A stretch of DNA of 27,675 nucleotides from a virus. Taxonomy: Duplodnaviria; Caudoviricetes. Below, piece after piece: positions 1 through 25,211 of this stretch; the stretch's first letter is position 1; every line of letters starts with the position of its first letter. The stretch covers positions 1 through 27,675 of the IMG/VR virus record IMGVR_UViG_3300022821_000091, one strand, 5' to 3'. The notes under the pieces were generated by a model that was not told the DNA's origin, searched no databases, and saw nothing but the letters and a program-made list of their open reading frames with translations. The position numbers were made by a program, and so were the translations under genes.

Positions 1-32
1 GTGTGGCGTGTGGCGTGTGGCGTGTGGCGTGT
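1..32 (+). repeat. Tandem heptamer repeat (GTGTGGC) x4.6, probably truncated by window edge
   Basis: gtgtggc gtgtggc gtgtggc gtgtggc gtgt read directly; related copies at ~103-113, 544-560, 582-590, 610-626. Confidence 0.9.
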
Positions 33-214
33 GTTGGTGTTTAGTGGTTAGAGTGTTGTTTATCAATAAATAGGGTTATTTCTGTGTTTTGTGGTAAAAA
101 GGGGGGCGTGTGTGCCGTTTTAAGCGTTGTTATAATTAGAGTTAATGTATAAGTCAGCTTATTTTCCTAAATTTAGGCAAAACTTTCTAAACATATACTC
201 TAAAAGCTTTTAAT

Positions 215-390
215 TTACTAGATAAACTTTTAGCCCCTTGTTATTCGTTCCGTCTTTATTGCGATAACTATACGATAAGCTATAGTCTTTTAAAAGTCAT
301 GTAATTGTCGCAAGTGATAGAACGCAAGAGGCTAGAGTTATAAGATAACTAATAGTCCGTCGTTAATGTTGATTGACTTCTTGCTATCTA
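215..390 (-). ncRNA. Candidate rod-like non-coding RNA
   Basis: Nested complementary blocks 231-240/325-334 (one U-G wobble on minus strand), 246-250/320-324, 259-264/308-313, 267-272/281-286; directly downstream of the leftward promoter; no long ORF. Confidence 0.45.
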
Positions 391-396
391 TTTATC

Positions 397-425
397 ATTA
401 TACTCTTGATTAATATAAAAGTCAA
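397..425 (-). promoter_or_regulatory. Sigma70-type leftward promoter
   Basis: Minus strand TTGACT (425-420), 17-nt spacer, TATAAT (402-397). Confidence 0.75.
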
Positions 426-433
426 GCGTAGCC

Positions 434-442
434 TGTGGATAA
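434..442 (-). promoter_or_regulatory. Consensus DnaA box TTATCCACA
   Basis: Plus strand TGTGGATAA at 434-442, 8 nt upstream of the leftward -35. Confidence 0.55.
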
Positions 443-543
443 CTTAAAGGCTTATATCCTCCTATCATTAGACTTAAGACTATAGGTTAAGCCTGTAGTC
501 TGTAGTCTGTTGCTATTGTGTCATATGGTTTAGACTTTTGCTT

Positions 544-626
544 ATAGTGTGGCGTGTGTGTGCTAATATCCTATAGCCTGTATAGTGTGGAGTTAGTCGT
601 TAAAACGTCATAGTGTGGCGTGTGTG
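544..626 (+). repeat. 17-nt direct repeat ATAGTGTGGCGTGTGTG
   Basis: Identical copies at 544-560 and 610-626; partial ATAGTGTGG at 582-590. Confidence 0.85.
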
Positions 627-896
627 GGCTTAGGCTTGAAGGGGGGAGTGGTTCGTTTAGGGTGGTTGAAATTATTTAGGAATCCGTTATATGGGACTCT
701 AGTACGAAAATTGAACAATTTTAAATCTTCCTTATATCTATAAAAAATTCAGACAAAAAAATCCCAGCCAAATTTTGTAGCCTAAACCATAGTGTTTTAT
801 AGCCTTTAGTTTGGGACTCCTAGCAATCTATAGTTTTCATACTACAAAAAAAATTCTCATATTTTTTACTTAGTTAAAGTAGGTTTATGTTAGGTA

Positions 897-925
897 TTGC
901 TAAAGATTGTAACTTATGCTATAAT
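897..925 (+). promoter_or_regulatory. Promoter TTGCTA-17-TATAAT with extended -10 (phage motif ACTTRTGCTATAAT)
   Basis: TTGCTA 897-902; TGcTATAAT 917-925; motif recurs at 5324, 11773, 26477. Confidence 0.75.
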
Positions 926-1001
926 GATAATGTGTTATTCTTAATAGATAAGAATTTCAGGCTAATTAATATACTATACTAAATAAATAATAAATAAAAT
1001 T

Positions 1002-1541
1002 ATGAAAAATGAAAACAAAGGAGAAGCTAATAGCAAAGAAGTTAAAGAAAAAAAAATTATATCTTCATTAACAGATGATAATGTTAATAAAATTAAAGAA
1101 AGCATTAGAGTTTCTGGTGGTGATTGGAATGAAGGATGTGAATATGCTGGATATTGGTTAAATGGAAGATCACTTATTTTTACAAATAATTGTATAGATA
1201 AACCATCAAAAGATGCTTTTTGTATAAGTAGAAATTGTTTAGAAAAAATTATTAAAGAATTACCAGAGCATGATAATAAAGATAAAAAATTAAAAGAGAT
1301 ACAAGAAGATGTTAATGCTAAAGATGTTAAAGAAATTCCTAAAGCTACTAAAGAAAGTTCTGTTAGAAGGATTATTATTGAAACAGATGGTAATATTATA
1401 ACAAACGTAAATGCTCAAGTTAATGGTAGTATTGAATTAATAGCTATTCTAGAAGAAGTAATTGGTACTCTTAAGAATGCTCAAATTGAAAGAGCTAAAG
1501 AAGTACAAGCTAGTTTCAGAGCTAAAGAAGAAAAGAAATAG
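1002..1541 (+). CDS. Hypothetical protein
   Basis: 179-aa ORF downstream of promoter, A-rich leader; no recognised motif. Confidence 0.75.
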   Translation: MKNENKGEANSKEVKEKKIISSLTDDNVNKIKESIRVSGGDWNEGCEYAGYWLNGRSLIFTNNCIDKPSKDAFCISRNCLEKIIKELPEHDNKDKKLKEIQEDVNAKDVKEIPKATKESSVRRIIIETDGNIITNVNAQVNGSIELIAILEEVIGTLKNAQIERAKEVQASFRAKEEKK

Positions 1542-1568
1542 TTAGATTTGTCAAATAAAATTTTTTTT

Positions 1569-1838
1569 ATGAAATTAGAAAATAAAAGGATAATTAAAAT
1601 TGGAGGTCTTAATGTTGATTTAAAATTTGTTACTAGTGATGAATTAGAAGGTGATTGTGGATCATCTGACCAGAAGGCTCCGTATATCAAGATAGATAAA
1701 GATATGAGTGATGATTTGATTATTCTTACATTACTTCATGAGATTTTTCATCACATTGACCCTGGACTATCAGAAAGTAAAGTAGAGCTATATTCTCGAG
1801 CGTGGTTTCAAATTTTTAAAGATAATGATTTATTATAA
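1569..1838 (+). CDS. Small HExxH zinc-metallopeptidase-like protein
   Basis: TLLHEIFHH motif with downstream E, preceded by IKID strand; ATG 1569 preferred over TTG 1548. Confidence 0.65.
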   Translation: MKLENKRIIKIGGLNVDLKFVTSDELEGDCGSSDQKAPYIKIDKDMSDDLIILTLLHEIFHHIDPGLSESKVELYSRAWFQIFKDNDLL

Positions 1839-1843
1839 TATGT

Positions 1844-2092
1844 ATGCCAAACGGTAAAAAACAAAGTAGCGAGCCAGAGTGTAAAAAACAATTTAATAGA
1901 ACTGTAGCGAAAACAGGAAAGTGGAGAGGAAAAACTCCAGATAAATATATTAAGTATCAGTCTCCTAAAAGAAATAAAGTAATAACCTTAATGGGTAATG
2001 ATAAAGGTATTAGTTCTAGAGAACAAAAAAAGATTTATAAAGAATTTCAGTTCAAAAAGAAAAAAAAGCACGATAAAGAAGAAGATATGTAA
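1844..2092 (+). CDS. Basic hypothetical protein
   Basis: 82-aa Lys-rich ORF tightly following upstream gene. Confidence 0.55.
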   Translation: MPNGKKQSSEPECKKQFNRTVAKTGKWRGKTPDKYIKYQSPKRNKVITLMGNDKGISSREQKKIYKEFQFKKKKKHDKEEDM

Positions 2093-2166
2093 TCTTCTAT
2101 CCCATCAGCGTAAGTTGGTGACAGGAAAACAGTCCATCATTATTTATAATGGTGGGATAGAAGATT
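2091..2166 (+). ncRNA. Structured RNA element A
   Basis: AATCTTCTATCCCATCA pairs with TGGTGGGATAGAAGATT (17 bp, 1 G-U); alternative inner hairpin CATCAGC-GTAA-GTTGGTG with GNRA loop. Confidence 0.55.
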
Positions 2167-2334
2167 AATTGATTTAACTTCCAGCGTATAGAAACTCTAT
2201 ATTAAGACTTGTTGTAATATACAAAGTCTAACCCCCAGCTCATAGAGTAAAGAAACTGGAAGAAGCTAATATTTATATCCTTAAAAGAAATATTAGTATC
2301 TGGATAACTAAATGTTGGGGGTTAAGTTAATTAA
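2165..2334 (+). ncRNA. Structured RNA element B (~170 nt multibranch)
   Basis: 23-bp closing stem 2165-2187/2312-2334 with 6 G-U and no mismatches; inner hairpins ~2188-2200, 2205-2229, 2235-2259, 2265-2297. Confidence 0.6.
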
Positions 2335-2357
2335 TTGATAATAGTAAAAATTGTTCC

Positions 2358-2809
2358 TTAAAACCTGAAGTCAAGTTATGTTATGTTATGTCAAAATGTT
2401 ATGTTGTTATATAAAAAATATTTAACTTGTAAAGATGATAAAGATACTTTATCTTATCCTTGTAAAATTATTACAGATGGAAAAGATACGAATGATTATA
2501 ATGGAGATAAATTAGTAGATTTTCAATTTATTCAAGCTAATTTAAGAAGTTTAACTGGAAGAATATTGACGATTATCGATGCGTCAATAACAGATAGTAA
2601 TCAGAATAAATGTGTTAAAGACTTAGTTAGAGGAGAGTTTATGCACGAGTTTGAAGCGTTAGGAGATTTAATGTTCGATAAACAAAGAATAGAGAGAACA
2701 ATGAATGGATTTTATACAAATGGTATTGATCCAGAAATTATTACTGCCAAAGAAGCATTAGGAGCTTAATTAATTAAAATAAAAACATTAAGTTGACTTC
2801 AGATTTTAA
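2358..2809 (+). repeat. Inverted repeat pair 1 enclosing ORF 2383-2769
   Basis: TTAAAACCTGAAGTCAAGTTATGTT (2358-2382) vs AACATTAAGTTGACTTCAGATTTTAA (2784-2809). Confidence 0.85.
2383..2769 (+). CDS. Hypothetical protein, paralog of 3563-3967
   Basis: GRILTIIDASITDSNQNKCVKDLV matches GEILTIIDAVIVDEKQNKSVKDLI; start may be ATG 2401. Confidence 0.75.
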   Translation: MLCQNVMLLYKKYLTCKDDKDTLSYPCKIITDGKDTNDYNGDKLVDFQFIQANLRSLTGRILTIIDASITDSNQNKCVKDLVRGEFMHEFEALGDLMFDKQRIERTMNGFYTNGIDPEIITAKEALGA

Positions 2810-2864
2810 AAAATAAAATGGGCTATAAAGGTATCGATTGCTTTATATGTAAAAAATAAATTAT

Positions 2865-3428
2865 ATGTCACGTATCAAGGGAAAGAAAAATCCTAATATG
2901 GCTCGTTTTGGTAATACTAATTCTTTAGGTCGCATTCAAACGCAAGCTACTAAAGATAAAGTAGGAAACGCACACAGAGGAAAAATTGTTTTACAAGCTA
3001 CTAGAGATAAACTAAGCAAAGCCAATTTAGGTAATAAAAATCCTCGTGGTATGCTTGGTAAAAAACAAACGCAAACTACTAAGTATAAAATGCATCAGTC
3101 TAAGCTAGGAGATAAAAATAATAATTGGAAAGGTGGTATAACGCCAATAAATGATACAATAAGACATAGCATTGAGTATGATTTATGGCGTAATGCAGTA
3201 TTTACTAGAGATAATTTTACTTGCCAAAAAACAGGGATTAGTGGGGGAGAATTACAAGCACATCATATTAATAATTTTTCTATATTTTCAGATTTAAGAT
3301 TTGCCATAGATAACGGTATTACTTTATTAAAAAAATCGCATATAGAATTTCATAAAATATACGGTTATAAAAACAACACTAAAGAACAATTAGAGGAATT
3401 TCTATTAGATGGTCCTCAAACGCAATAA
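2865..3428 (+). CDS. NUMOD3-like repeat + HNH homing endonuclease
   Basis: QATKDKVGNAHRGK/QATRDKLSKANLG repeats, NWKGG, RDNFTCQK, AHHI, NGITL. Confidence 0.85.
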   Translation: MSRIKGKKNPNMARFGNTNSLGRIQTQATKDKVGNAHRGKIVLQATRDKLSKANLGNKNPRGMLGKKQTQTTKYKMHQSKLGDKNNNWKGGITPINDTIRHSIEYDLWRNAVFTRDNFTCQKTGISGGELQAHHINNFSIFSDLRFAIDNGITLLKKSHIEFHKIYGYKNNTKEQLEEFLLDGPQTQ

Positions 3429-3434
3429 TAATCC

Positions 3435-3509
3435 CGGTGTATGCCGAAGTAATGGTTTAGATGCCATTAGGTAGTAATGGTTTATAAGGGTTCGATTCCC
3501 TTGCTACCA
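3435..3509 (+). ncRNA. tRNA-like element / pseudo-tRNA
   Basis: Canonical T-arm AAGGG-TTCGATT-CCCTT followed by GCTACCA; acceptor and anticodon arms non-canonical. Confidence 0.5.
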
Positions 3510-3522
3510 TATATTTAGTTCT

Positions 3523-4001
3523 TTTAAATTTGCAGTCAAGTTAAATTTAGTCAAGTAAAGTTATGCCAAACAAAGATCAAACAGGTCCTAAAGGAAAAGG
3601 TCCTAAAACAGGTAGATTAGGTTCTATAAATAAAAAAGTCATGTTCAAAGAAAATGAAGTCAATAAAGACGTAGCAACATTATGGAATGCTATATATAGC
3701 GAAATATATGAATATAAGCAACATAAGTTAGGTGAAATATTAACTATAATAGACGCAGTTATAGTTGATGAAAAACAAAATAAAAGCGTAAAAGATTTAA
3801 TTAAAGCAACTATTTATAATGGAGACAATATGGATTTTAGAATAGCCTCTTGGTTATTTTGGTTAATTGATAACAATGATATTACTCATAATAATTCAAG
3901 ATCAAGTGTTCCATTTAGATATACTGATGAATTAAGAAATCCACAATTAGAAGCTTATAAACAATAATAAACTAATATTATAAGTTGACTGCAAGTTTAA
4001 A
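3523..4001 (+). repeat. Inverted repeat pair 2 enclosing ORF 3563-3967
   Basis: TTTAAATTTGCAGTCAAGTTAAATTTAGT (3523-3551) vs ACTAATATTATAAGTTGACTGCAAGTTTAAA (3971-4001). Confidence 0.85.
3563..3967 (+). CDS. Hypothetical protein, paralog of 2383-2769, with DUF5320-like N-terminal motif
   Basis: MPNKDQTGPKGKGPKTGR resembles the MPxxDGTGPxGxGPxTGR start of DUF5320 proteins; shared ILTIIDA...QNKxVKDL block. Confidence 0.75.
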   Translation: MPNKDQTGPKGKGPKTGRLGSINKKVMFKENEVNKDVATLWNAIYSEIYEYKQHKLGEILTIIDAVIVDEKQNKSVKDLIKATIYNGDNMDFRIASWLFWLIDNNDITHNNSRSSVPFRYTDELRNPQLEAYKQ

Positions 4002-4303
4002 TGAATTATATGAATAAAGATAATAATGAAAATAATTTTTTTAATAATTTAGCTATTGAAATTGGTATTACAGATGTTAAAGTTGTTAGACAATTTTATT
4101 ATGCTTTAGTAAGAACTTTATATAAAACATTAAAGAATAATAAAAAAGTTGAAATGCCTGATTGGGGAATATATAAAATTAAACCATTTAAGGCAAGAAG
4201 TGTTCATAATATTAATACTGGTGGTAAAATAGATGTACCAGCTACAAATACTCTTAGATTTGAAGTTGATTACAAATTAAAAGATAAGGTTAAAAATTTA
4301 TAA
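4001..4303 (+). CDS. HU/IHF-family DNA-binding protein
   Basis: VEMPDWGIYKIKPFKARSVHNINTGGKIDVPATNTLRF follows HU pattern LxGFGxFxVxxRxARxGRNPxTGExIxIPAxxxxxF. Confidence 0.85.
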   Translation: MNYMNKDNNENNFFNNLAIEIGITDVKVVRQFYYALVRTLYKTLKNNKKVEMPDWGIYKIKPFKARSVHNINTGGKIDVPATNTLRFEVDYKLKDKVKNL

Positions 4304-4304
4304 T

Positions 4305-4375
4305 AGCGGGATGGAGAAGAGGCATCTCGACGGTCTCATAAGCCGTAGTCCTGGGTTCGATTCCCAGTCCTGCCA
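4305..4375 (+). tRNA. tRNA-Met (CAT), initiator-like
   Basis: Acceptor AGCGGGA/TCCTGCC, D-stem GAGA/TCTC, anticodon arm ACGGT-CTCATAA-GCCGT, T-arm CTGGG-TTCGATT-CCCAG; CCA not encoded. Confidence 0.9.
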
Positions 4376-4382
4376 CAAACAA

Positions 4383-5272
4383 TATTCTTTAACAATTTAC
4401 GCTAAGCATAACGGGCAGAAGTCGTCTACGTGACGCAGAAGTCCCACAAAATCTATGCTAAAAAATAATTACGAAGTTGATATATTAATCAACGGAAAGA
4501 GAGTACAAGAATACTTACAAAAAGATAAAATGTATATTGAAGGAAGAAAAGGTACTAAGTATTCAATTAAAATCAATAATAATTCATGGGAAAAAATAAT
4601 TGCTATTCCTACTGTTGATGGCATTTCAGTCATTAATGGAAAGTTAGCAGATTATAATTCTACGGGATATATTATTAATAGCCATTCTTCAATTACTATT
4701 GATGGATGGAGAAAAAACGATAAAGAGGTGGCTGAGTTTTATTTCTCAAACACGAAAGACTCTTATGCGAGAAGAGTCGGAAAGAATGGTAACCAAGGTG
4801 TTATTGGAGTTGCTATATATAAAGAACAAAATGAAGAAAGAAATTTTATAAAAAGAATAACAGAAATAGAACCTATATATAGAGAAGTTCCAATGTGGTA
4901 TAATGGTAGTATTAGTAATATTACTACTAATATAGATTCATGTTCTAGTATAACAACTGCTTCTTGTTCATTATCAGCATTAAAATCATCAGCATCACAA
5001 GTAAATTGTTGTTTTAAATCACAACAAGTTGGTACTGGATGGGGAGAAATTAAACATTCTGAGGTAATCAATTCTTCATTTAATAAAGATAATAGTTCTT
5101 TAACAGTGTTTGAGATATTTTATAACACAAGAAAAGAGCTTGAAAAACAAGGGATAACTTTTAATAAGGTTACATATATTAGTTCACCAAAAGCGTTCCC
5201 TAATGAGTATTGTGAAACACCAAGAAGATAATTAATTAATAAATAACGTTTAGCGTAAGTTGTTAGAGAGTA
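4383..5272 (+). repeat. Inverted repeat pair 3 enclosing ORF 4455-5231
   Basis: TATTCTTTAACAATTTACGCTAAGC (4383-4407) vs GTTTAGCGTAAGTTGTTAGAGAGTA (5248-5272): 25 bp, 4 G-U, no true mismatch. Confidence 0.9.
4455..5231 (+). CDS. Conserved uncharacterised beta-rich protein
   Basis: Motifs VDGISVING, GYII, IDGWRK, FYF..DSYA, GVIGVA, VGTGWGE recalled from a widespread bacterial/phage hypothetical family. Confidence 0.8.
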   Translation: MLKNNYEVDILINGKRVQEYLQKDKMYIEGRKGTKYSIKINNNSWEKIIAIPTVDGISVINGKLADYNSTGYIINSHSSITIDGWRKNDKEVAEFYFSNTKDSYARRVGKNGNQGVIGVAIYKEQNEERNFIKRITEIEPIYREVPMWYNGSISNITTNIDSCSSITTASCSLSALKSSASQVNCCFKSQQVGTGWGEIKHSEVINSSFNKDNSSLTVFEIFYNTRKELEKQGITFNKVTYISSPKAFPNEYCETPRR

Positions 5273-5275
5273 AAT

Positions 5276-5307
5276 AAGCTTCACTTTTGAAGCTTTTTTG
5301 TTTTTTT
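5276..5307 (+). terminator. Intrinsic terminator
   Basis: AAGCTTCA-CTTT-TGAAGCTT followed by T-rich run. Confidence 0.7.
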
Positions 5308-5323
5308 AGCGACAAAACGGTGT

Positions 5324-5338
5324 TACTTATGCTATAAT
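5324..5338 (+). promoter_or_regulatory. Extended -10 promoter motif
   Basis: TACTTATGCTATAAT just after terminator, upstream of 5402. Confidence 0.7.
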
Positions 5339-5401
5339 GTTATATAGAATGATATAAATTATAACTTTCTATACATAGTTTAATATAAAATTTTTAAAAA
5401 T

Positions 5402-5875
5402 ATGGATAAACCAATGAATAAATCTAAGAATTTAGTATCAAAAGTAAAATCTTCTGAAAGAAAAACAGAACTTGAAGGAAGTTTAGATGATTTAAATAAC
5501 AGAGAAGGAGCTATTAATAGTCAAGAAGTTATTAGTAAGAACAAAATAAACGAAATGAAAGGTAAAATAATCCAAGAACTATTTAAAATCTTGGAGAATT
5601 TTGGCGTGGATCCATCAGACTTAAATTCTATTAATAAATTTTTATCAGAATTAGAGAAGACACAACCAGATTTATTAAAGTTATTTGAATTAACATTCAA
5701 TGATTTAATTAAAGAACCAGAAAATAACGCTAATACTATACCAGCAACACCACCTACTACTGGATTACCTGAAGCTATGCCTAATACTAGTACAGCTCCA
5801 ACACAACCAATTGGAAACGAAGGATTAATGGATAAATATAAAAATTTGGGTCAAGAAACAATGATGCCAAGATAA
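5402..5875 (+). CDS. Hypothetical protein (helical core, Pro/Thr-rich C-terminus)
   Basis: 157-aa ORF with A-rich leader after promoter. Confidence 0.75.
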   Translation: MDKPMNKSKNLVSKVKSSERKTELEGSLDDLNNREGAINSQEVISKNKINEMKGKIIQELFKILENFGVDPSDLNSINKFLSELEKTQPDLLKLFELTFNDLIKEPENNANTIPATPPTTGLPEAMPNTSTAPTQPIGNEGLMDKYKNLGQETMMPR

Positions 5876-6422
5876 TTATATATAGCTAAGAGAAGTCAAG
5901 AACGGTATAAAAAAATATGATTGATAAACCGTTAGAAGTACTAGAAGCCAGATTCCCAGAATTTTTAGTGTGGCTTAGAGAGATTAGTCGATATGCTCAA
6001 GTAGAAAAATTTATTCTACTAAAGGACTATAAAGAAAGTGTAAGGGTTAGTTTCTTTACTAAGGAAAATGAATATAGCGTTAGTGTGAGACGACCACATG
6101 AATTTAGCGAACACATTGTTCAAAGAGATGTTAATGATAGAATTATTGGTGAGAGCAATGCTCCTATTGATAATGGGTATTTAGGGGGCGGAGTGTCTAC
6201 TAGAAAGCCTAGAGCTGGAGAAGACTGGAGACGAGGAAACGATTTAGCTGACGGACCTTACTGCAAGGAAACTTGGAACAAAATTAAAAATGATATTGTT
6301 TCATATGAACTTGTTAGAGTCATTCGTCCAGTAGATCCAACCTGTGAACCAGTTAATGGACCACTTGTTAAAGAAGTAAAATAATTAACACCATTCTTTG
6401 ACTTCTCTTAATTATATATAAT
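5875..6422 (+). repeat. Inverted repeat pair 4 enclosing ORF 5917-6384
   Basis: ATTATATATAGCTAAGAGAAGTCAAGAACGGT (5875-5906) vs ACCATTCTTTGACTTCTCTTAATTATATATAAT (6390-6422). Confidence 0.85.
5917..6384 (+). CDS. Hypothetical phage protein
   Basis: 155-aa ORF; motif-like GYLG..RKPRAGEDWxRGNDLADG; function unknown. Confidence 0.8.
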   Translation: MIDKPLEVLEARFPEFLVWLREISRYAQVEKFILLKDYKESVRVSFFTKENEYSVSVRRPHEFSEHIVQRDVNDRIIGESNAPIDNGYLGGGVSTRKPRAGEDWRRGNDLADGPYCKETWNKIKNDIVSYELVRVIRPVDPTCEPVNGPLVKEVK

Positions 6423-6425
6423 AAT

Positions 6426-7067
6426 ATGAAGGAATATAAAAAAAAATACGAAGATGTTTATACTTCTTCTAGATTTTTAAATAGATGTAAAATTTGGAAA
6501 GTATCAACTGTTTTAGATTTTGATGAACTTAAATATAGAAAAACATTGAGAATAGTATTAAGACAATATCAATCTAATACATTTAATATGTTATTGAAGA
6601 ATGATTGGTTAGTACATCATTTTTGTTATAATGGTGTTCAACGTATGAAATCTAAGAATAATGGTATTGTATTAGATCGTTCTTACGGAATATACATGAG
6701 ACATTATGTTGGTTATGATAATAAGTCTATTAGTTGTAATCAATTAAGTTCATCTGTAATTAGTTATTTTGAAGATTTTTTTCCAAATTTTTATTCACTC
6801 AATCCTTTAAAAAAACGTTTTAAATACCCATACTCTTATATGAATTTTGAATGTTTATTTCTTGTTTATCAAATGCCAGAGCGATTAGATTTATTGAAAA
6901 TTGGTGAAAAGAAAAGAATGAGATATACAAAATTCGTTGATTATGTTATTAACTATGCTTTATCAAAGACTGATGAACTTAATGATGAGAATTATTTTTC
7001 TATAGCTTATTCCGGTCAAACAAAAGCACCATTTATAAGATATAAATATTATGAAAGAAAAAAATAA
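6426..7067 (+). CDS. Hypothetical protein upstream of terminase
   Basis: 213-aa basic/aromatic ORF overlapping next gene. Confidence 0.7.
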   Translation: MKEYKKKYEDVYTSSRFLNRCKIWKVSTVLDFDELKYRKTLRIVLRQYQSNTFNMLLKNDWLVHHFCYNGVQRMKSKNNGIVLDRSYGIYMRHYVGYDNKSISCNQLSSSVISYFEDFFPNFYSLNPLKKRFKYPYSYMNFECLFLVYQMPERLDLLKIGEKKRMRYTKFVDYVINYALSKTDELNDENYFSIAYSGQTKAPFIRYKYYERKK

Positions 7068-7608
7068 AAAACAATTAAAACCAGTTATCTTTTTAAAAGG
7101 CAAATATAACTATCATGGTCAAAATCTTTTTCAACAAAATTTATTACTAAAAGCATTACAGGTTACTACTGATGTTAATGAACTTAAGAAAATGATTGGA
7201 GTTAAAACTGTTGCTGAGGTTTATAGAACGTTAGATAAGATAGCTATTAGAAAAGAATATCATGAGGCATTACTAAGAAATGAAATAGACCTTGATAGCA
7301 TTGTTAAAGGAATTAAAGATGTATGTACAGATGAAAATGAATCTGGTGCTATCAAACTTAAAGGATGGCAAGTATTACTTAAATCATTAGGCTTAGATAA
7401 TTATAGTGATATAGAAAAAGAAAGTAGAAATTCATGGGAAGATGTTGTTAGAGAAACTGTTAAAGCTATTGATAAATCTAAAGATAAACAAATTATTAAT
7501 GCTGATTATGAAGTTGTTATTCCAAAAGCACCAGAAGCAGAAAGGAGAAAACAAGAAGAAGAGAATGAACTAGGAAAGAGTTTGTATGAAAATGAAAACG
7601 AAAAATAA
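7051..7608 (+). CDS. Probable terminase small subunit
   Basis: Position immediately before terL, size, helical character. Confidence 0.5.
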   Translation: MKEKNKKQLKPVIFLKGKYNYHGQNLFQQNLLLKALQVTTDVNELKKMIGVKTVAEVYRTLDKIAIRKEYHEALLRNEIDLDSIVKGIKDVCTDENESGAIKLKGWQVLLKSLGLDNYSDIEKESRNSWEDVVRETVKAIDKSKDKQIINADYEVVIPKAPEAERRKQEEENELGKSLYENENEK

Positions 7609-7611
7609 AAT

Positions 7612-9048
7612 ATGAATACTCAATTATCAAAACTTAAAGATGTTAAATTCTATCTTGAAAATTATACAAAAATTAAAATTAAAAAAGGTGGAATTGCTCC
7701 GTTCGTTTTAAAAGAAGCTCAAAAAGATTTGTTTAATACTTTGAAATATCACAATAGAGTGATGATTTTGAAAGCTAGACAATTAGGTTTCAGTACTGCT
7801 GTAGTTGGATATTTTTATCATAAGACAATTATGAATCCTGGTGTTACAACTGTTTTAGTAGGATATAACCAAAAAATTGTATCAGAATTATTAGATAAAA
7901 TTAAAACATTACATAAAACAACTCCAGAAGCTTTAAGACCAACATTACAATATAACTCTAGGTCAGAAATTAGTTTTCCTAAAATAGATTCAAAGATTAT
8001 TGTTTTACCTAGTAGTGAAAACGTTGGTCGTGGTTTAATGATTAACTATCTTCTTGTTACCGAGCTTTCATCATGGGATAAAGCAGAAGAAAAAATGGCT
8101 GGACTTGAAGAATGTGTACCTAAAGAAGGAATGATAGTTATTGAGTCAACTCCTCGTGGTGTTGGTAATTTGTATCATAGAATGTGGATGATAGATAGTG
8201 AGTATACTAAGAAAAAATATGGTTGGTGGTGGGAGTATACACAAGCAGAAATGGATATTAAGAAGAAAGGTAAAGGTCCACAAATGTTTGCTCAAGAATA
8301 TGGACTTGAATTCCTTGCATCTGGTAGATCAGTATTTGATGGTGATATAGTAAAAAAACAAAGAAAAAATATACTTGAAGTTGGTGATATTAGAAGAGAA
8401 AAAGGTAAAGAAGATTTTACTGTTTATAAACAAGATAATTGGACAATATATAGAGAACCAGAAAAAGATGGATTATATGTTTGTGGAGCTGATATTTCAG
8501 AAGGTGTTCAAGGAGGAGATTATTCAGTAGCTGCTATTCTTGATAGAAAAACTGGTGAAGAAGTTGCTATGTGGAGAGGATTAGTTTCTCCTGATAGATT
8601 TGGAGAAATACTTAATAAAAAAGGTAGAGAATATAATAATGCCTTAATGGTTCCAGAAGTTAATAATCATGGTTTAACAACAATAACAATTTTAAAACAA
8701 TTGCTTTATCCATCAATGTATTTCAGACAAGCAAAACATGAAGCTTTAAGTCAAACAACTACTGATAAGATGGGATGGAAAACAAGTAAGGTAACAAGAC
8801 CATTATTGATTGATGATTTTATACAAATGGCAAGAGATGGTGAAATAACAATTCATAGTAAAATAACATTAGATGAAATGTCAATATTCGTTTATGATGA
8901 TGCTGGAAATATGGTTCCACAAGCTGGATTCCATGATGATACAATTTTTGCTACTGGAATTTGTTTGCAAGGATTCAAAGTATTATATGATAAAAAATTA
9001 GATCAATTAAATTATCAAGACCATTTACCAAAGAGTTTCGCATATTAA
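7612..9048 (+). CDS. terL: Terminase large subunit
   Basis: Walker A KARQLGFS, Walker B LLVTE, ESTPRG coupling motif, nuclease GADISEG...GDYS, EVNNHG, HDD. Confidence 0.95.
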   Translation: MNTQLSKLKDVKFYLENYTKIKIKKGGIAPFVLKEAQKDLFNTLKYHNRVMILKARQLGFSTAVVGYFYHKTIMNPGVTTVLVGYNQKIVSELLDKIKTLHKTTPEALRPTLQYNSRSEISFPKIDSKIIVLPSSENVGRGLMINYLLVTELSSWDKAEEKMAGLEECVPKEGMIVIESTPRGVGNLYHRMWMIDSEYTKKKYGWWWEYTQAEMDIKKKGKGPQMFAQEYGLEFLASGRSVFDGDIVKKQRKNILEVGDIRREKGKEDFTVYKQDNWTIYREPEKDGLYVCGADISEGVQGGDYSVAAILDRKTGEEVAMWRGLVSPDRFGEILNKKGREYNNALMVPEVNNHGLTTITILKQLLYPSMYFRQAKHEALSQTTTDKMGWKTSKVTRPLLIDDFIQMARDGEITIHSKITLDEMSIFVYDDAGNMVPQAGFHDDTIFATGICLQGFKVLYDKKLDQLNYQDHLPKSFAY

Positions 9049-9065
9049 TTAATATTTAAAAATAT

Positions 9066-11105
9066 ATGAGTACAGAAAAAGATTACAGACCTGAAGATTT
9101 CTCTAAAGGAGAAATTGAAATGATGAGAAAATATCCATTACAACTAGATGATTCTAGAAATTATTTTAAAGCTATTCTTAAACCAAGACTTGATAGGTCT
9201 TATAAAATTTATATTTGTGATACAAGAGATAGAGCTAAAGAAATAAATTCTTGGCAGGCTAATGTTTTTGTTCCATATGCTCATGCTGTAATAGAAACAT
9301 TAAAACCACGTATTTTAGATGCTAGACCAGATTTAGGTGTACAAGGAAGAACTGAAGATGATCAACCAAAATCTAGTAAAGTACAAAATTTATTAGATTA
9401 TGATTGGGAAGTATCTAAAGCTGACTCTATGGCAGAGATGTTTGTTGATGCTGCCTTAATTTATGGCACAGGACACGCACAAGTTTATTGGAAGAAAGAC
9501 GTTAGAACTCATAAGTTTTTCCAAGGAACTAATATAAATACTAAAAAAGCAGAATGGAAAGATAAAACTCAAACATTCTATGATGCTCCATATGTTGAAA
9601 ATGTTGATAACTATGATTTATGGTATGATTGGCATAATATTGCTGCTGAAGATAAACAATATTGGTTTAGAAGAAAAGTTTTAAATAGAGCTACTATTGA
9701 AAGACGTTATCCAATGTTTGATAAAAAAAGATTGGATATGGCTGTCAAAAAGAGTGGTGATTTAACAAATTATGCTTCTATTAGAAATGAAGTTAAATAT
9801 ACACAAGAAAGTATTTCTAAGGGGACTAATAATATAAGTGGTGGAATGTCTAGTGATAATTATGAAAGCGCGGATAATAGTCCTGATTTAAAAATGCATG
9901 AAGTATTCGAATGGTGGAGACCATTTGAAGATAAATATGCTGTTATGGTTAATGATGTTCCAATTCTTAAAGGAGGAGAAATGCCATGTCCATATGATTT
10001 CAAAGAAGCTCCATTCATTTCAGTTCAGTATTTAAAACTACCTAATGAATTTGAAGGTTATGGAGTATCACTTATATTAGAGAATCCTGGTAAAATGTTG
10101 AATATGGTTAAAAACCAAAGACTTGATGCTATGACATTAAATATTCATAAGATGTGGATTGTTAATCCTTTAGCCAATATTAATAAAGAAGAATTAGTAA
10201 CAAGACCATTTGGTATAGTTTATTCAACTGACCCTAATGGTGTTAAGCCGGTAGAATTTAGTGATATTAAAGCTAGTGCTTATAAGGAAGAAGAATTAAT
10301 AAAAGCTGACATGAGATATGGTATTGGTGTTGATGATTCATCTATGGGTGTTGGTGGTAGTTCTGGAAGTGCTACAGAAACTAGACATTTAAGAGAATCA
10401 ACATTAGAAAGAGTTAGATTGTTTGTTAATCATCTTGGAGAAGCATTCTCTACATTAGAAAGATATTGGATTTCAATGCATAGACAATTCTTTACTAAGA
10501 AATTTAACATTAGAATATTTGGAGATAATGGAGCAATAGAATTTCCATTAATTGAAAAAGATGATTTAATGGGAGAGTTTGATTATAAAGCAACTGTATT
10601 ACCATCTATTACTGGACAAAATGAAGTTAAGAAGAAACAAGATATGGATTTATTTCAACTTCTTATTGGGTTACCATTTATTGATCCTCAAAAACTTACT
10701 TCTAAAGTTTTATATGATTGGAATTGGGATATTGATTCATTAACTGTTTCAGAAGAAGCACCAACAGGAATACCATTACCAGGAGAAGAAAATGGAGAAG
10801 TACCAACTGGTGAGAGTGGCTTATCAGAAAAAATAGCTGGTGGACAAATACCAGAAGATGTAGCTAAAAAGGCATTAGCATTATTAGGTGAAGTTCCATC
10901 TAGTCAAAGTCAATTTGCTGAAGCAAAATCACCAATAAATTTATTAGAATCTGGTGTACCACCAACAGTTAAGAATATTCCATTACCTACTACTAATACA
11001 AGAGGAATGAATCGTGGAGGTAAAGTTAATACTAATGTTCCAACAAAAGCACCTAATGGCCCTGCTGCACAAATACAAAATAGAGCAAATAATATACAAC
11101 GTTAA
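9066..11105 (+). CDS. Portal protein (podovirus/P22-SU10-like)
   Basis: 679 aa after terL; DAALIYGTG, FEGYG..LNMVKNQRLD, SATE motifs. Confidence 0.85.
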   Translation: MSTEKDYRPEDFSKGEIEMMRKYPLQLDDSRNYFKAILKPRLDRSYKIYICDTRDRAKEINSWQANVFVPYAHAVIETLKPRILDARPDLGVQGRTEDDQPKSSKVQNLLDYDWEVSKADSMAEMFVDAALIYGTGHAQVYWKKDVRTHKFFQGTNINTKKAEWKDKTQTFYDAPYVENVDNYDLWYDWHNIAAEDKQYWFRRKVLNRATIERRYPMFDKKRLDMAVKKSGDLTNYASIRNEVKYTQESISKGTNNISGGMSSDNYESADNSPDLKMHEVFEWWRPFEDKYAVMVNDVPILKGGEMPCPYDFKEAPFISVQYLKLPNEFEGYGVSLILENPGKMLNMVKNQRLDAMTLNIHKMWIVNPLANINKEELVTRPFGIVYSTDPNGVKPVEFSDIKASAYKEEELIKADMRYGIGVDDSSMGVGGSSGSATETRHLRESTLERVRLFVNHLGEAFSTLERYWISMHRQFFTKKFNIRIFGDNGAIEFPLIEKDDLMGEFDYKATVLPSITGQNEVKKKQDMDLFQLLIGLPFIDPQKLTSKVLYDWNWDIDSLTVSEEAPTGIPLPGEENGEVPTGESGLSEKIAGGQIPEDVAKKALALLGEVPSSQSQFAEAKSPINLLESGVPPTVKNIPLPTTNTRGMNRGGKVNTNVPTKAPNGPAAQIQNRANNIQR

Positions 11106-13120: not shown

Positions 13121-14371
13121 ATGTCTAATTTCCCTTATTACACCGAACCTACACATGACGAAGGAACAGTTGCTGCAGCTCCAAGAACTACAGCAGTTTC
13201 TAACGCAGAAGGTCGGTTAATAGTTAACGCTGTCGATAAAATCTTTCTTTTAGAACCTAACAAGCATCCACTTGTAACATTATTAACTAACGTTGGTAAA
13301 GTTTGGGATGGAAAAGCTTGGTCAGGATCTAGTATGCTTAAACAAGCAACTGGAAATCCTGAATTTAGTTGGTTTGAAGATTTTTATGGTGGACGTTACG
13401 CAAGAGTTAGTGGTACTTATACAACTGCCGCTGACCAAACTCCTACTTTAACAGGAGCTGGTGCTAATTCAGGTTACATTTTCACTGCTGGTGATATTGT
13501 AAAGAATGCTAGAACTGGCGAATGTATGGTAGTTGGTACTGTTGCTGCTACAACTATTCAGTTACATCTACGTGGATTCGGTTCTACGGCTGCTGCTGCT
13601 GGTGTTGATAGTGATGGTATGTACCTTATTGGTAATGTAAATGAAGAAAATGCTGGTGCAAGAAATGTTAATACTACACGTTCTACAAAAGAGAGTAATT
13701 ATACTCAAATTTTTAAGACTACTATTGCTGTTTCTGGTACTGAAAAAGAAGCTGATTTATATGGTGGAAAAGATTTACCATATCTTAGAGCTAAGAAAGG
13801 AACTGAACATGCTCTTGATATCGAAAGAGCTATATGGTGGGGTCAAAAGAAATACTCTACAAGTGGAACTAACAGTCATCCATTAAGAGCTACTGGTGGT
13901 GTATTAGAATTCATCGAAGGTGGAGGATCTTATGTTCAAAATCAAGGTGGTGTTTTAACTGCTCCTGATTTTAACACATTCTTAAGAGAAGGATTTACTT
14001 ATGGAAATGATACAAAAACATTTTTCTGCGGTGGTGTTGTTTTACAAGCCATTAATGAAATTGCTCGAGGTCAAATCCAAATGAAACCATTAGCTAAGTC
14101 TTATGGTATGCAAATCGGAGAATATGTTACAGCTTTTGGTAGAATTAATATTATTCACAATCCTCTATTTATAGAAGATTATGCTGGATATGGATTCTTA
14201 CTAGATATGGAATGTTTCAAATATAGATTCATGAATAATCGTGATACTAAATTAGAAACAAACGTTCAAGCTAATGATGTTGATGGTCAAATCGATCAAT
14301 ATAAAACTGAATGTGGATTACAAAGAATACAAGCTCCTAAATGTGCTTTATTAAAAGGTGTTACTGCCTAG
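13121..14371 (+). CDS. Major capsid protein (SU10/DUF5309-like HK97 fold) with insertion domain
   Basis: FSWFED, NYTQIFKTTIAVSGT, EHALDIERAIWWG, RATGGV; beta-rich insertion at approx. aa 90-170. Confidence 0.9.
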   Translation: MSNFPYYTEPTHDEGTVAAAPRTTAVSNAEGRLIVNAVDKIFLLEPNKHPLVTLLTNVGKVWDGKAWSGSSMLKQATGNPEFSWFEDFYGGRYARVSGTYTTAADQTPTLTGAGANSGYIFTAGDIVKNARTGECMVVGTVAATTIQLHLRGFGSTAAAAGVDSDGMYLIGNVNEENAGARNVNTTRSTKESNYTQIFKTTIAVSGTEKEADLYGGKDLPYLRAKKGTEHALDIERAIWWGQKKYSTSGTNSHPLRATGGVLEFIEGGGSYVQNQGGVLTAPDFNTFLREGFTYGNDTKTFFCGGVVLQAINEIARGQIQMKPLAKSYGMQIGEYVTAFGRINIIHNPLFIEDYAGYGFLLDMECFKYRFMNNRDTKLETNVQANDVDGQIDQYKTECGLQRIQAPKCALLKGVTA

Positions 14372-15918: not shown

Positions 15919-17082
15919 ATGGCAGATACAAGATTGGTGGATATGCAATACCACTTTCTCTATGACCCAACAATATTTGGTGCCAGTGATGATTATTTTA
16001 AGAACATAACACTTAAAAAACCATCAATTGCTGGTGGGAAAATAAGACTTAATGCCGTTACTGTAAATACGACTGACTTTTTTATGTATGGAAATTTTGA
16101 GTTTAGAACTCAAGTTCCTACAGTTCCGACAGGCGGAGATTCTCGTATCATTGGTATTTATACCAGAGCTATGGGTAATCGAAATGCCGCGTATTTCTTT
16201 ATCAGTGGTACAAGTCTTTATACAAGATCTTATAACGATGATAGTGCTGTTGCAGAATCTAATACCATTACATGGGATACTACATGGACTAATACTCCTA
16301 CATCATTTGAAATTAAATGGAGAATAGATAGAGTAGAATTTTGGATTGGTAATGGAAGTTTAAAAAGAAAAGTAGCTACTCATTATGACAAAGTTCCAAG
16401 AGCGTTAACTTTACCATTATATATTTATAATGGTAATAGTGATAATATGGATGTTAGTTGGATATGGATAGACGAAGTTAGAAAACATGTAAGAGGTAGT
16501 GCAGAATTTTATTCTTCTACATCTTCTACATCTAGTTCAACCTCATCTAGTACCTCTAGTTCAACTTCATCTAGTACATCAAGTTCTACGACTACAAGTT
16601 CAACTTCTAGTTCTACAAGTTCTAGTACTTCTAGTTCAACAAGTTCAACCTCATCTAGTACGTCAAGTTCTACTTCAAGTTCAACAAGTTCAACTTCTAG
16701 TTCTACAAGTTCTAGTACTTCTAGTTCAACAAGTTCAACCTCATCTAGTACGTCAAGTTCTACTTCAAGTTCAACAAGTTCAACATCTTCTAGTACATCA
16801 AGTTCTACTTCTAGTTCAACAAGTTCAACTTCTAGTTCAACTTCATCTAGTACATCTAGTTCAACTTCTAGTTCGACTTCATCTAGTACTTCAAGTTCTA
16901 GTTCAAGTTCGACTTCATCTAGTACTTCAAGTTCTAGTTCAAGTTCGACTTCAAGTTCTACATCAAGTTCAACAAGTTCAACTTCTAGTTCAACTTCATC
17001 TAGTACCTCTAGTTCTAGCTCGTCTAGTACGTCAAGTTCTAGTTCATCTAGTACATCAAGTTCAACCTCATTGTTAGGTTAA
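15919..17082 (+). CDS. ConA/GH16-like beta-sandwich protein with 186-aa Ser/Thr tail
   Basis: FMYGNFEFR and FEIKWRIDRVEFWI resemble GH16/LamG strands; residues 199-384 are only S or T. Confidence 0.8.
   Translation: MADTRLVDMQYHFLYDPTIFGASDDYFKNITLKKPSIAGGKIRLNAVTVNTTDFFMYGNFEFRTQVPTVPTGGDSRIIGIYTRAMGNRNAAYFFISGTSLYTRSYNDDSAVAESNTITWDTTWTNTPTSFEIKWRIDRVEFWIGNGSLKRKVATHYDKVPRALTLPLYIYNGNSDNMDVSWIWIDEVRKHVRGSAEFYSSTSSTSSSTSSSTSSSTSSSTSSSTTTSSTSSSTSSSTSSSTSSTSSSTSSSTSSSTSSTSSSTSSSTSSSTSSTSSSTSSSTSSSTSSTSSSTSSSTSSSTSSTSSSTSSSTSSSTSSSTSSSTSSSSSSSTSSSTSSSSSSSTSSSTSSSTSSTSSSTSSSTSSSSSSSTSSSSSSSTSSSTSLLG
16513..17070 (+). repeat. Ser/Thr coding low-complexity repeat
   Basis: TSSS-type periodicity with mixed synonymous codons; perfect 90-nt tandem duplication 16594-16683/16684-16773. 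Confidence 0.95.
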
Positions 17083-18678: not shown

Positions 18679-20106
18679 ATGAAGAATATAAAACTAAGCG
18701 ATGTAATAAGCAGCGTGGAGTCTCTTGGCAGTTATTTTATAACAATAACATCAAGAGATACAAATAAAATAGAAAATGATTTAAAGCATTATGTTTTTAG
18801 AAAACAATTTTCTAATGATGATATAGTTCCATCTCTAGACGTTTGCGTACGCGGTTTAGGAGTAAAATTTCCACAATTAGTTCCAGTTATAATACCAAAA
18901 ATAATAAATGAAAAAGTTAAACCACTTAAAATTGCTATAATTACTCATTTTAATAGAGCACCTGATTCTTATTCTCCCGGAAAAGCTGTAAAGAATCAAA
19001 TAAAACTATTAATGGAGTATGGGCATGAAGTGGTATTTTTTGTACAAGAGGGTAGTAAATTAGATGTTGGATGTACAATGAAACCAATAATGCCAAAGTT
19101 TAAAAGAATAAAGAACGTAGTAGATAATGAAGCAAAAGAAAAGATTAAAAATATATTAAAGTCAGAATTAACAGATAATTTTGATATAGTTATTACTCAT
19201 GATTTCTTTATAGACGACTGTATAACGTATAGAGAGGCTATAAAAGAGTGTGGAATAGACATTAAATGGCTTCATTGGGCACGTTCTGGTATTGGTAGAC
19301 CAATAGATTTTAAAATGGATAACACTAGATATGTATACATGAATTATGCTGACGTTGGAGTTTTCGCAGAAAGAATTAATGTTAATTCAGATAAAGTTAG
19401 AGTTATATTTAATGAGAAGGATCCAGCATTATTATTTCAATGGAATCCAATAACTAAATATATTGCTGATAAAATGAAACTTTATGATAAAGAGATTATT
19501 CAAACATATCCAATTTGTACTACTAGGATGGATTCTAAGGGTCTTAATTCGGTAATAAAAGTATTTGCTGAACTTAAAAAATGTGGAAAAAAAGTTGCAT
19601 TAATAATATGTAATTCTAATGGTAGACGTAGATTAGATGAAATTAAAAGTAAACAAGATTATGCTAAATCTTTAGGATTAACAGATAAAGATATTGTTTT
19701 TACTAGTACACTTTCTAATGAAGAACACATTATACATAGTGAAGTTCCGAATAAGGTTGTTTCAGAATTATTACAGATTTCAAATCTATTTGTATTTCCA
19801 ACAGTCGCAGAGGTTTGTAGTAATGTGTTATTAGAAGCATCAATGACTAAAAATCTATTAGTTTTAAATGAAGACTTGCCATTACTGTTTGATTTTGCTG
19901 ATGAAAATTCTGTTTTAAAATATCCATTCACATCTTCAAGAAATTTACATTATTCTGGTAGAGATGATAAGCCAGTTAATGATTTAGCTAAAAGTATTAT
20001 TAATCAATTAGATAATAATAAAAACGATTTACAATTTAGACGAATATGGAGAGTACATAATAGACATGCTATTTATCAAATGTTAAAAAACGTTTTATAT
20101 GAATAA
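18679..20106 (+). CDS. GT-B (GT4-like) glycosyltransferase
   Basis: KIAIITH...GHEV; NLFVFPTVAEVCSNVLLEA (EX7E motif). Confidence 0.85.
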   Translation: MKNIKLSDVISSVESLGSYFITITSRDTNKIENDLKHYVFRKQFSNDDIVPSLDVCVRGLGVKFPQLVPVIIPKIINEKVKPLKIAIITHFNRAPDSYSPGKAVKNQIKLLMEYGHEVVFFVQEGSKLDVGCTMKPIMPKFKRIKNVVDNEAKEKIKNILKSELTDNFDIVITHDFFIDDCITYREAIKECGIDIKWLHWARSGIGRPIDFKMDNTRYVYMNYADVGVFAERINVNSDKVRVIFNEKDPALLFQWNPITKYIADKMKLYDKEIIQTYPICTTRMDSKGLNSVIKVFAELKKCGKKVALIICNSNGRRRLDEIKSKQDYAKSLGLTDKDIVFTSTLSNEEHIIHSEVPNKVVSELLQISNLFVFPTVAEVCSNVLLEASMTKNLLVLNEDLPLLFDFADENSVLKYPFTSSRNLHYSGRDDKPVNDLAKSIINQLDNNKNDLQFRRIWRVHNRHAIYQMLKNVLYE

Positions 20107-21388
20107 TAAAGATATACAACCAGTACCAGTTATTTTAGTAACATATAGAAGACTTCATCTTTTAAAGAAAGTTATTAAGAATATTTATGATAATACTAAA
20201 ATTTATCATAGACTTTATGTGGTTAATAATGATATTACTGATATTGATACAATAAGAACTTTACAACAATTTAAGGCATTTGGTTATATAGATGATTTTA
20301 TAAGTACCGAAGAAAACAAAGGATTATCTTATGGATTTAAAAAAGGTTTTGAGTTCGCTAAAAGTAAAGGAGATTTTAAATTGGTAGTATTTACCCAAGA
20401 TGATTTGCTTAGCCCTAAATTATCTCCGTGTTGGTTAGAAAGATTAGTTCATTTATCTGAAAAAAATCCTGAAATGGGAGCAATATGTATGAGAATAGAA
20501 CGAACTGCTCGGCGCGATATAAATGAATTTTTAGATTTAATACCATCTGATACTGCTTGTCCTGCTGTATTTAGAATTAGTTCAAAAGAATTAATAGAAA
20601 AAATAGGATTTTCTAAACGTCCACATTGGGAAAGTCATGAGTTTTCAAATAGAATTAAAAAAGAAGGCTTTAAAATGGCTATGGCTACTAAGATTTATTC
20701 TAGTCATATTGGTTTTGTTGATAATAAAGGATTTGATAAAGAAACAATGTATCTTACATATGCTGAAAATAAATTAAGTCAACATATAGATAATCCTTAT
20801 CCAAAAATTGATAGTGATACTAATATGCCTATAGAGATAACTACTGGCAAGGATAAAAGGGAGCAAGATAAACGTGAAGCATATTATAAATATTGGGGGG
20901 TAGATTTTAGAGTTAAAAAAACAAAAAGAATTACTCCAGAACAATTAGAGTTAGCAAAATATTGTAAGAAAGGTAAAGGTATTGATATCGGGTGTGGTCA
21001 AATGAAATGCGATCCAAATTGTATTGGAGTTGATATACATCATGAAAGTGTTGCTGAAATAAAAACTGACTGTCGTGATTTATGGATGTTTAACAATGAA
21101 TTAGATTTTGTTGTTAGTAGTCATTCTCTCGAGCATATGCCTGATGTTATAGAAGTATTAAAAGAATGGAAGCGTGTTTTAAAAGTAGGAGGAATTATGG
21201 GAATAGCTGTTCCTAATGGACATAAATATCCGAAGTTTATTATAAAGAATGGTCATAAGATAAATTTTGGTATGGAGGAATTAAGGTTGATATTTAAGTT
21301 TATTTTAAAGATGAAAATAATAAAATTAAAACTAGTATCTAATACTAAAGGAATAGATAGAGTTATATTAATAATAGGAAAAAAATAA
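20099..21388 (+). CDS. GT2 glycosyltransferase fused to SAM methyltransferase
   Basis: PVILVTYRR, FTQDD; C-terminal IDIGCG, DFVVSSHSLEH, RVLKVGG. Confidence 0.85.
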   Translation: MNNKDIQPVPVILVTYRRLHLLKKVIKNIYDNTKIYHRLYVVNNDITDIDTIRTLQQFKAFGYIDDFISTEENKGLSYGFKKGFEFAKSKGDFKLVVFTQDDLLSPKLSPCWLERLVHLSEKNPEMGAICMRIERTARRDINEFLDLIPSDTACPAVFRISSKELIEKIGFSKRPHWESHEFSNRIKKEGFKMAMATKIYSSHIGFVDNKGFDKETMYLTYAENKLSQHIDNPYPKIDSDTNMPIEITTGKDKREQDKREAYYKYWGVDFRVKKTKRITPEQLELAKYCKKGKGIDIGCGQMKCDPNCIGVDIHHESVAEIKTDCRDLWMFNNELDFVVSSHSLEHMPDVIEVLKEWKRVLKVGGIMGIAVPNGHKYPKFIIKNGHKINFGMEELRLIFKFILKMKIIKLKLVSNTKGIDRVILIIGKK

Positions 21389-21398
21389 AATAAAAAAT

Positions 21399-22594: not shown

Positions 22595-22595
22595 T

Positions 22596-23189: not shown

Positions 23190-23190
23190 T

Positions 23191-23808: not shown

Positions 23809-23812
23809 AAAT

Positions 23813-25207: not shown

Positions 25208-25211
25208 AAAT

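Follow-up and report, generated by a model that had tools for sequence, protein, structure and literature searches.

The question raised by this locus is why single protein genes of a phage should be enclosed one by one between complementary sequences. In a 27,675-nucleotide (nt) stretch of viral DNA (Duplodnaviria; Caudoviricetes; IMG/VR record IMGVR_UViG_3300022821_000091, positions 1 to 27,675; hereafter the window), four open reading frames (ORFs 1 to 4) lie among consecutive small genes that precede the terminase gene, and each is flanked by a left and a right arm that are complementary to each other. The analysis described here indicates that these leader-trailer stems are real and act at the RNA level. 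Judged from sequence, they are probably the counterpart of the processing stalks of ribosomal RNA (rrn) operons, and the host RNase III would cut them inside a boxA-like word, giving single-gene mRNAs with clamped ends.

The 80 nt before the start of each of 34 window ORFs were folded against the 60 nt after its stop, with 300 shuffles as the control. The flank-to-flank duplexes of the four ORFs had energies of -29 to -35 kcal/mol and z scores of -5.8, -6.5, -6.1, and -8.0, and 0 of the 300 shuffles equaled them, so that the shuffled-flank control proposed in an earlier first-pass annotation of this DNA left the stems standing. That annotation had described the four bracketing repeats, and all were recovered, displaced by a few bases. 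Its claim that neighboring ORFs lack arms agreed with the remaining 30 of the 34 ORFs, none of which gave a duplex below z -1.7, and the preference of every left arm for its own right arm was reproduced from duplex energies. Stem 3 consists, as had been described, of 25 contiguous pairs including four G-U pairs. The AGTCAAG core said to be common to left arms 1, 2, and 4 is present in each, with TTGACT in right arm 1. All four stems were closed in both the minimum free energy and the centroid folds of whole cassettes; cassette 1 folded as a whole reached only z -1.8. A near-regular duplex of about 20 bp or more, a trait of RNase III substrates, is present in the stems. The annotation had overlooked a GTTCTTT(A/G)AAA-like word common to the outer ends of left arms 1 to 3, as well as the likeness to the boxA, the processing stalk, and the 23S helix 1 of rRNA operons.

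Alignments of homologues led to about 160 viral loci, from which 25 near-duplicates were dropped. In the remainder, a flank alignment score of at least 20 was reached by 72 of 2757 ORFs, compared to 16 of 5514 mismatched flank pairs. Retaining loci of at most 47% G+C, with one record (G002) used whole, yielded 76 cassettes in 35 loci, whose cargo comprises 33 protein clusters of small, uncharacterized proteins (61-258 aa, median 126 aa). With duplicates dropped, arms were found around 17 of 24 homologues of ORF1 and ORF2, around 12 of 67 testable homologues of ORF3 (12 of the top 15), and around 14 of 42 homologues of ORF4 (12 of the top 14). Close homologues therefore keep the arms, which was one of the checks the annotation had suggested. 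Whole records contained 14 arm-framed ORFs of 198 (G002), 2 of 144, 2 of 92, and 1 of 92. Ten of the 14 cassettes in G002 form one cluster transcribed away from the head genes, and since its capsid is Mu-like and differs from that of the window, the feature crosses virion types. The order and presence of cassettes vary among relatives, and several cassettes follow tRNAs or long non-coding stretches. A scan of viral contigs with the left-arm pattern by itself returned mostly chance matches, a right arm being present in 3 of 22 ORF-followed matches (120 loci).

A second family of arms was found on divergent early genes. Here TTCTGGAAC stands opposite GTTTCAAAA with a conserved C-A mismatch, and 15 of 17 left motifs had a matching right motif. 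Arrays of up to ten divergent genes with these arms were observed in G002 (99.8-107.5 kb) and in loci L092, L099, and L117, and the conserved C-A mismatch adjoins a G-U pair. In the pre-16S stem of Aquifex, an A-C pair is reported to lie beside the cut (PMC3074117).

We then considered whether the arms act as RNA or as DNA. In a MAFFT alignment of 12 ORF4 cassettes the right flanks aligned too poorly for column counts, and pair counts were therefore anchored on the GTCA/TGAC core. In the ORF1/2 family, 379 of 418 cells pair, at least two Watson-Crick types occur at 19 of 22 stem positions, and for 17 of 19 left arms the best partner is the right arm of the same cassette. The corresponding counts for the ORF4 family are 284 of 308 cells and 20 of 22 positions, with the own right arm preferred by 10 of 15 arms. 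With symmetric scoring, G-U pairs outnumbered A-C oppositions by 186 to 89 in the 76 cassettes, where the null gave 180 versus 188; with one cassette per protein cluster the counts were 76 and 49. Divided by gene orientation within the same loci, they were 29 versus 4 and 75 versus 50. The G-U bias thus tracks the coding strand in both orientations, which argues for RNA and not for a fixed DNA strand. Together with the compensatory changes, this supports the proposal of the annotation that the arms form an RNA helix rather than a double-stranded DNA site. Within the window itself, the G-U bias held only for pairs 2 and 3.

The annotation had also entertained DNA sites, and we considered arms serving as the ends of mobile or invertible cassettes, or folding in single-stranded DNA as attC sites do. 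The variable order and presence of cassettes, with ORF4 missing between the same two neighbors in L008, L021, and L109, would suit such sites, and G-T wobble favors one strand in single-stranded DNA too. We nevertheless regard DNA cassettes as very improbable because of the strand bias in both orientations, the near absence of attC boxes (one GTTRRRY and zero RYYYAAC in 8 flanks), the lack of any tyrosine or serine recombinase (PF00589, PF00239) in 5 of 5 records that are 28-83% complete, and the empty sites, 3 of 3 of which are A/T spacers of 16-17 nt with no core scar, although the phages concerned are distant. A second assembly of the same phage is also colinear across the 14.4 kb compared, with 2 mismatches. 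Integron cassettes are likewise single promoterless ORFs in variable order, with an attC hairpin behind the ORF; unlike them, the arms described here flank the ORF on both sides, R boxes are missing, and an integrase was not found.

The conserved letters of the stems point toward rRNA operons. Left arms often open, at their outer end, with GTTCTTT(A/G)AAA, which we take to be the rrn boxA word. The naming of rrn boxA also follows PMC10250234. At up to one mismatch, GTTCTTTRAAA was found in 22 of 76 left arms, in 3 of 76 reverse-complemented right arms, and in 9 of 533 other genes. In the window it has one mismatch in arms 1 and 2 and two in arm 3. On the right strand the sequence drifts by way of U-G pairs, which means that the boxA-like word is conserved as a signal in one strand. 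The inner core, GTCAAG/CTTGAC, resembles 23S helix 1 and was found in 28 of 76 cassettes compared to 15 of 533 other genes. A Priestia plasmid rrn operon carries the same boxA word, paired at 10 of 11 positions in both its 16S and 23S stalks, as in the phage. Metagenomes were scanned for boxA, a short gap, TCAAG, and a 23S motif, a pattern derived from the phage motif. Among the 82 matches, 36 proved to be 23S starts in which boxA, TCAAG, and a short stalk are present, four of them confirmed by Rfam. In these, 23S helix 1 is formed by TCAAG, as its 5' strand, with CTTGA from the 3' end of the 23S rRNA; the phage core matches the 23S ends in L316. Bacteroidota 16S loci (17 testable) had a boxA-like word in 14 cases, mostly paired in 4 of the 14, and the 23S starts printed for Bacteroidota loci had no adjacent boxA. 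We also tried AGTCAAG as an antisense -35 box and rejected it, since no strong -10 was found by the arm copies and promoter-like sites were at chance level (53 versus 46.9). One site, 425-397, is a good promoter match with AGTCAAG as the antisense -35.

These features suggest the following sequence of events. The arms would pair in the messenger RNA as a helix of 25-28 bp laid out like an rRNA processing stalk. NusB/NusE would read the boxA-like word and keep the left arm tethered to RNA polymerase until transcription has produced the right arm, a Nus-factor-assisted meeting of arms of the kind proposed for rrn operons (PMC10250234). RNase III would then cut within the run of A residues in boxA, some 8 bp outward from the core, and the remaining 12-16 bp would shield both mRNA ends from exonucleases while leaving the AUG free. 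Each accessory gene would in this way gain its own stability and could be swapped as a self-contained expression module.

The predicted cut was placed using the E. coli RNase III consensus taken from PMC5141509, which may differ from that of the host. The cassettes scored 19.1 of 32 compared to 18.4, and 0 of 200 pair-order shuffles did as well. By eye, the consensus picks one register in 22 of 34 cassettes of the ORF1/2 and ORF4 families. This register falls on the A-run of boxA, eight pairs outward from the core, and it holds in arm 4, from which boxA has been lost. The RNase III of B. subtilis cleaves duplexes in mRNA that are 10-36 bp long and span up to 505 nt (PMC11780869). It is from the consensus register and these long-range cuts that we infer excision of a clamped single-gene mRNA by RNase III. 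Among the mechanisms listed in the annotation, RNase III-type excision is the best supported, by the compensatory changes, the coding-strand G-U bias, and a modest fit to the consensus.

Several observations weigh against this interpretation. The anchors of the covariation counts were picked for pairing, with controls optimized alike, so that the counts do not amount to a formal covariation test. In window pairs 1 and 4 A-C exceeds G-U (3 versus 1 in each, in extended alignments). The gain over the consensus null is small (0.7 of 32), only 47 of the 76 cassettes exceed the mean of their own null, and the 76 are related to one another. The boxA-like word is lost in left arm 4 (four mismatches) and is closely kept in only the 22 left arms counted above. 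Being based on the phage motif, the metagenome scan establishes the presence of the layout in rrn operons and gives no measure of its frequency there. The rrn stalks found by it pair only the 3' end of boxA, and the spacing from boxA to TCAA is mostly 18-19 nt in the phage versus 23-27 nt in 35 of the 36 rrn matches. Distant homologues of the cargo genes lack arms.

A helix that forms and is left uncut by RNase III is a less probable explanation, which we would still give a modest chance. It could serve as an end-to-end clamp that blocks exonucleases, or as a Nus-factor signal in which boxA loads the rrn antitermination complex over each gene and pairing with the right arm then removes boxA. 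Conservation of boxA on the left strand only speaks for this explanation, as does the position of several cassettes behind tRNAs or long non-coding stretches. Yet stems of about 25 bp have the length that RNase III cuts (PMC11780869), the consensus register recurs even where arm 4 has no boxA, and the arm family of the early genes has a different word.

It is unlikely that the cut is instead made beside the GTCAAG/CTTGAC core by Mini-III or another activity of 23S maturation. No part of the ORF1/2 and ORF4 stems is more conserved than the core, which has its match in the 23S ends of L316, and the final cut of pre-23S rRNA is made by Mini-III (PMC5141509). According to the same source, though, the enzyme prefers WSSW, with ACCU the best, and needs ribosomal protein L3 to cleave pre-rRNA; the conserved AGTC/GACT does not fit WSSW, and the core is absent from 48 of 76 cassettes.

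A third possibility concerns translation. The 3' end of hok and aapA toxin mRNAs silences translation, and the annotation had suggested that the right arm, once made, does the same here. Small, uncharacterized cargo would be in keeping with such toxins, and in 8 of 76 cassettes an inner extension of the stem comes within 5 nt of the AUG. The helix stops a median of 14 nt before the AUG (at least 10 nt in 60 of 76), and a Shine-Dalgarno-like word was found in 0 of 27 window genes, which leaves no such site to mask. Because of this gap and the lack of Shine-Dalgarno sites we disfavor silencing and consider it as improbable as a Mini-III cut; the conserved letters also lie in the outer stem, away from the start.

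Phage mRNAs could also be made circular, each cassette working as a small rRNA operon for a protein gene, with the host rrn antitermination complex bringing the arms together, RNase III excising the product, and an RNA ligase of phage or host sealing its ends. The products of RNase III bear a 5'-phosphate and a 3'-hydroxyl (PMC3867540). ATP-dependent RNA ligases are encoded in 2 of 5 records of cassette-bearing relatives, which makes circularization possible, though unsupported, and we hold it to be improbable. In phages rich in tRNAs, the usual role of these ligases is tRNA repair. The only ligase so far in the phage of the window is RtcB, which joins ends other than 5'-phosphate and 3'-hydroxyl.

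RNase III-type excision of single-gene messages has several known relatives. In T7 and SP82/SPO1, host RNase III cuts early phage polycistrons into single-gene mRNAs; the sites there are local hairpins between genes, whereas here the gene itself is the loop of the helix. The intervening sequences of 23S rRNA hold an ORF within a stem excised by RNase III; they lie inside rRNA genes and carry one protein family, whereas the phage frames surround free-standing mRNAs of 33 cargo clusters. As in Bacillota-type rrn operons, boxA forms the 5' strand of a long helix closing around the product, and in cassette 3 a tRNA precedes boxA. In contrast to rrn operons, the cargo is a gene for a protein of 61-258 aa (no rRNA family was found in window positions 1-8000, the loops being ORFs), each gene has its own stalk, with up to 14 in a phage record, and boxA and the core lie closer together than in the compact rrn matches, by about 5 nt. 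The B. subtilis sites likewise are duplexes of 10-36 bp within one mRNA (PMC11780869). The phage duplex differs in joining the 5' and 3' untranslated ends of whole ORFs, in its shared boxA-like word, and in a frame that travels with its gene between phages; cleavage here is predicted. Gene-by-gene framing of phage ORFs by boxA stalks was not found in searches of the open-access literature.

The coordinates of the arms, the cargo genes, and the elements around them are collected in the table.

Table. Positions in the window of the framed genes, their arms and predicted cuts, and adjacent features.
Feature	Position	Strand	Remarks
Left arm 1	2351..2378	+	boxA-like GTTCCTTAAAA at 2353-2363; core AGTCAAG at 2369-2375
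ORF1	2401..2769	+	122 aa, function unknown, paralogue of ORF2; first in-frame ATG at 2383
Right arm 1	2788..2815	+	TTGACT core
Left arm 2	3517..3543	+	boxA-like GTTCTTTTAAA at 3518-3528; core AGTCAAG
ORF2	3563..3967	+	134 aa, same family as ORF1
Right arm 2	3981..4007	+	
Left arm 3	4383..4407	+	14 nt (4386-4399) exactly match the boxA region of an E. coli rrn leader
ORF3	4455..5231	+	258 aa, DUF7918 (PF25534)-like
Right arm 3	5248..5272	+	
Left arm 4	5874..5901	+	core AGTCAAG at 5894-5900; boxA lost
ORF4	5917..6384	+	155 aa, large uncharacterized family, 171 homologues
Right arm 4	6396..6423	+	
Predicted RNase III center, arm 1	2360-2361		best consensus
Predicted RNase III center, arm 2	3525-3526		best consensus
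Predicted RNase III center, arm 3	4392-4393		best consensus
Predicted RNase III center, arm 4	5885-5886		best consensus
ORF-less structured RNA region	2092..2337	+	just upstream of cassette 1
HNH gene	2865-3428		between cassettes 1 and 2
tRNA-like relic	3433..3510	+	acceptor-like stem and T arm, CCA end; just before left arm 2
HU-like gene	4001-4303		first ATG (4001) overlapped by right arm 2
tRNA-Met	4305..4376	+	directly before left arm 3 (order tRNA, boxA, stalk)
Leader hairpin with internal loop, conserved	4413..4444	+	between left arm 3 and the ORF3 AUG
Terminator-like hairpin	5276..5295	+	after right arm 3

The cargo proteins themselves gave few clues. The annotation had begun ORF1 at its first in-frame ATG; a 122-aa database protein and the homologues make the later start at 2401 the probable one. 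Pfam and PHROG searches gave no name for ORF1 or ORF4, and the Atlas had no usable match for the cargo proteins. ORF1 had no fold match, and a model of ORF4 (predicted local distance difference test score 85) had no PDB match at E<=0.001. ORF3 matched PF25534 with E 0.002, which misses the cut-off; many of its homologues carry PF25534.

Two kinds of leader element were observed next to the stems. The hairpin with a GAAG-rich internal loop in the ORF3 (DUF7918) leader is also present in L006, L007, L008, L010, L013, L014, and L021, and is possibly a protein-binding or regulatory element. The leaders of the ORF1/2 family (2369-2403 and 3534-3565 in the window; L163, L230, and L264) have three to four GTCAAG/GTTAAG/GTTATG repeats before the AUG, of which only the first pairs with the right arm; these may be an autoregulatory binding site. 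The sequence of the terminator-like hairpin behind right arm 3 is the right arm of another cassette in L003 (~130-770), while in the window it has no clear left partner, a contrast that suggests cassette replacement.

The second unit of the ORF-less RNA upstream of cassette 1 (2164-2337) recurs in L007 (754-892) and L091 (6189-6344). It has a long closing stem and an internal second copy of both strands, either nested or an alternative pairing; these second copies covary in L091, and the z score of the region is -7.2. Rfam has no family for this RNA or for the stems, and a model of it searched against 71 sources returned the three training sequences only and one weak partial match (E 0.099). 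Directly before this unit, window positions 2092-2164 form an additional long hairpin with no match beyond this phage. The tRNA-like relic before left arm 2 was not called by ARAGORN; it matched the 3' end of transfer-messenger RNA weakly (E 0.1), and it lacks a regular D or anticodon arm.

The window record is 28% complete and contains the tailed-phage genes for terminase (7612-9048), portal (9066-11105), and an SU10-type major capsid protein (13121-14371), the last with relatives at no more than 30% identity. The second assembly extends upstream into a large tRNA cluster with an RtcB gene. This upstream part (L164, 5115-9710) holds about 25 tRNAs with genes for GIY-YIG and LAGLIDADG endonucleases and RtcB. 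Arms were found at 0 of 37 ORFs in the upstream 17.5 kb of the phage. In the window, GTGTGGC tandem repeats and back-to-back promoter-like sites (1-40, 540-630, and 369-425) are located where divergent transcription units switch. Farther downstream, a gene at 15919-17082 ends in about 190 codons of Ser/Thr repeats and is followed by glycosyltransferase, methyltransferase, LicD, and cytidylyltransferase genes (18679-25631), an arrangement possibly concerned with virion glycosylation.

Shine-Dalgarno-like words are also scarce in relatives (0 of 16, 7 of 131, 2 of 82, 5 of 60, and 3 of 59 genes), and the host probably belongs to a lineage that initiates translation without Shine-Dalgarno sites, such as the Patescibacteria. 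The 23S rRNAs found in the metagenome scan are deep-branching, which fits Patescibacteria and does not name them; the one tested had 72-74% identity to the listed 23S genes of full length from named plasmids, and insertions or a group I intron are present in some. The single genome match in the host search was a 4.5-kb contig in a Bacteroidales bin, which may be misbinned.

Taken by themselves, boxA, leader-trailer stalks, and long-range RNase III sites are known, and it is their use gene by gene around phage ORFs that, judged from searches of open-access papers, appears to be new. The present analysis adds the conservation of boxA on the left strand only, the helix-1-like core, the predicted cut register, and the strand test in two orientations. 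If the proposed processing is correct, these phages would borrow the host production line for rRNA (boxA, Nus factors, and RNase III) and turn out separate mRNAs with protected ends, and the frame would be a portable expression module moving with each gene. Antitermination and stalk processing of the rrn type would then extend to protein genes. The cassettes would also be a source of natural RNase III substrates, dozens of them and covarying, from a host group that has not been cultured; their sequences would give a clue to the host, and their layout a simple way to make bacterial mRNA more stable.

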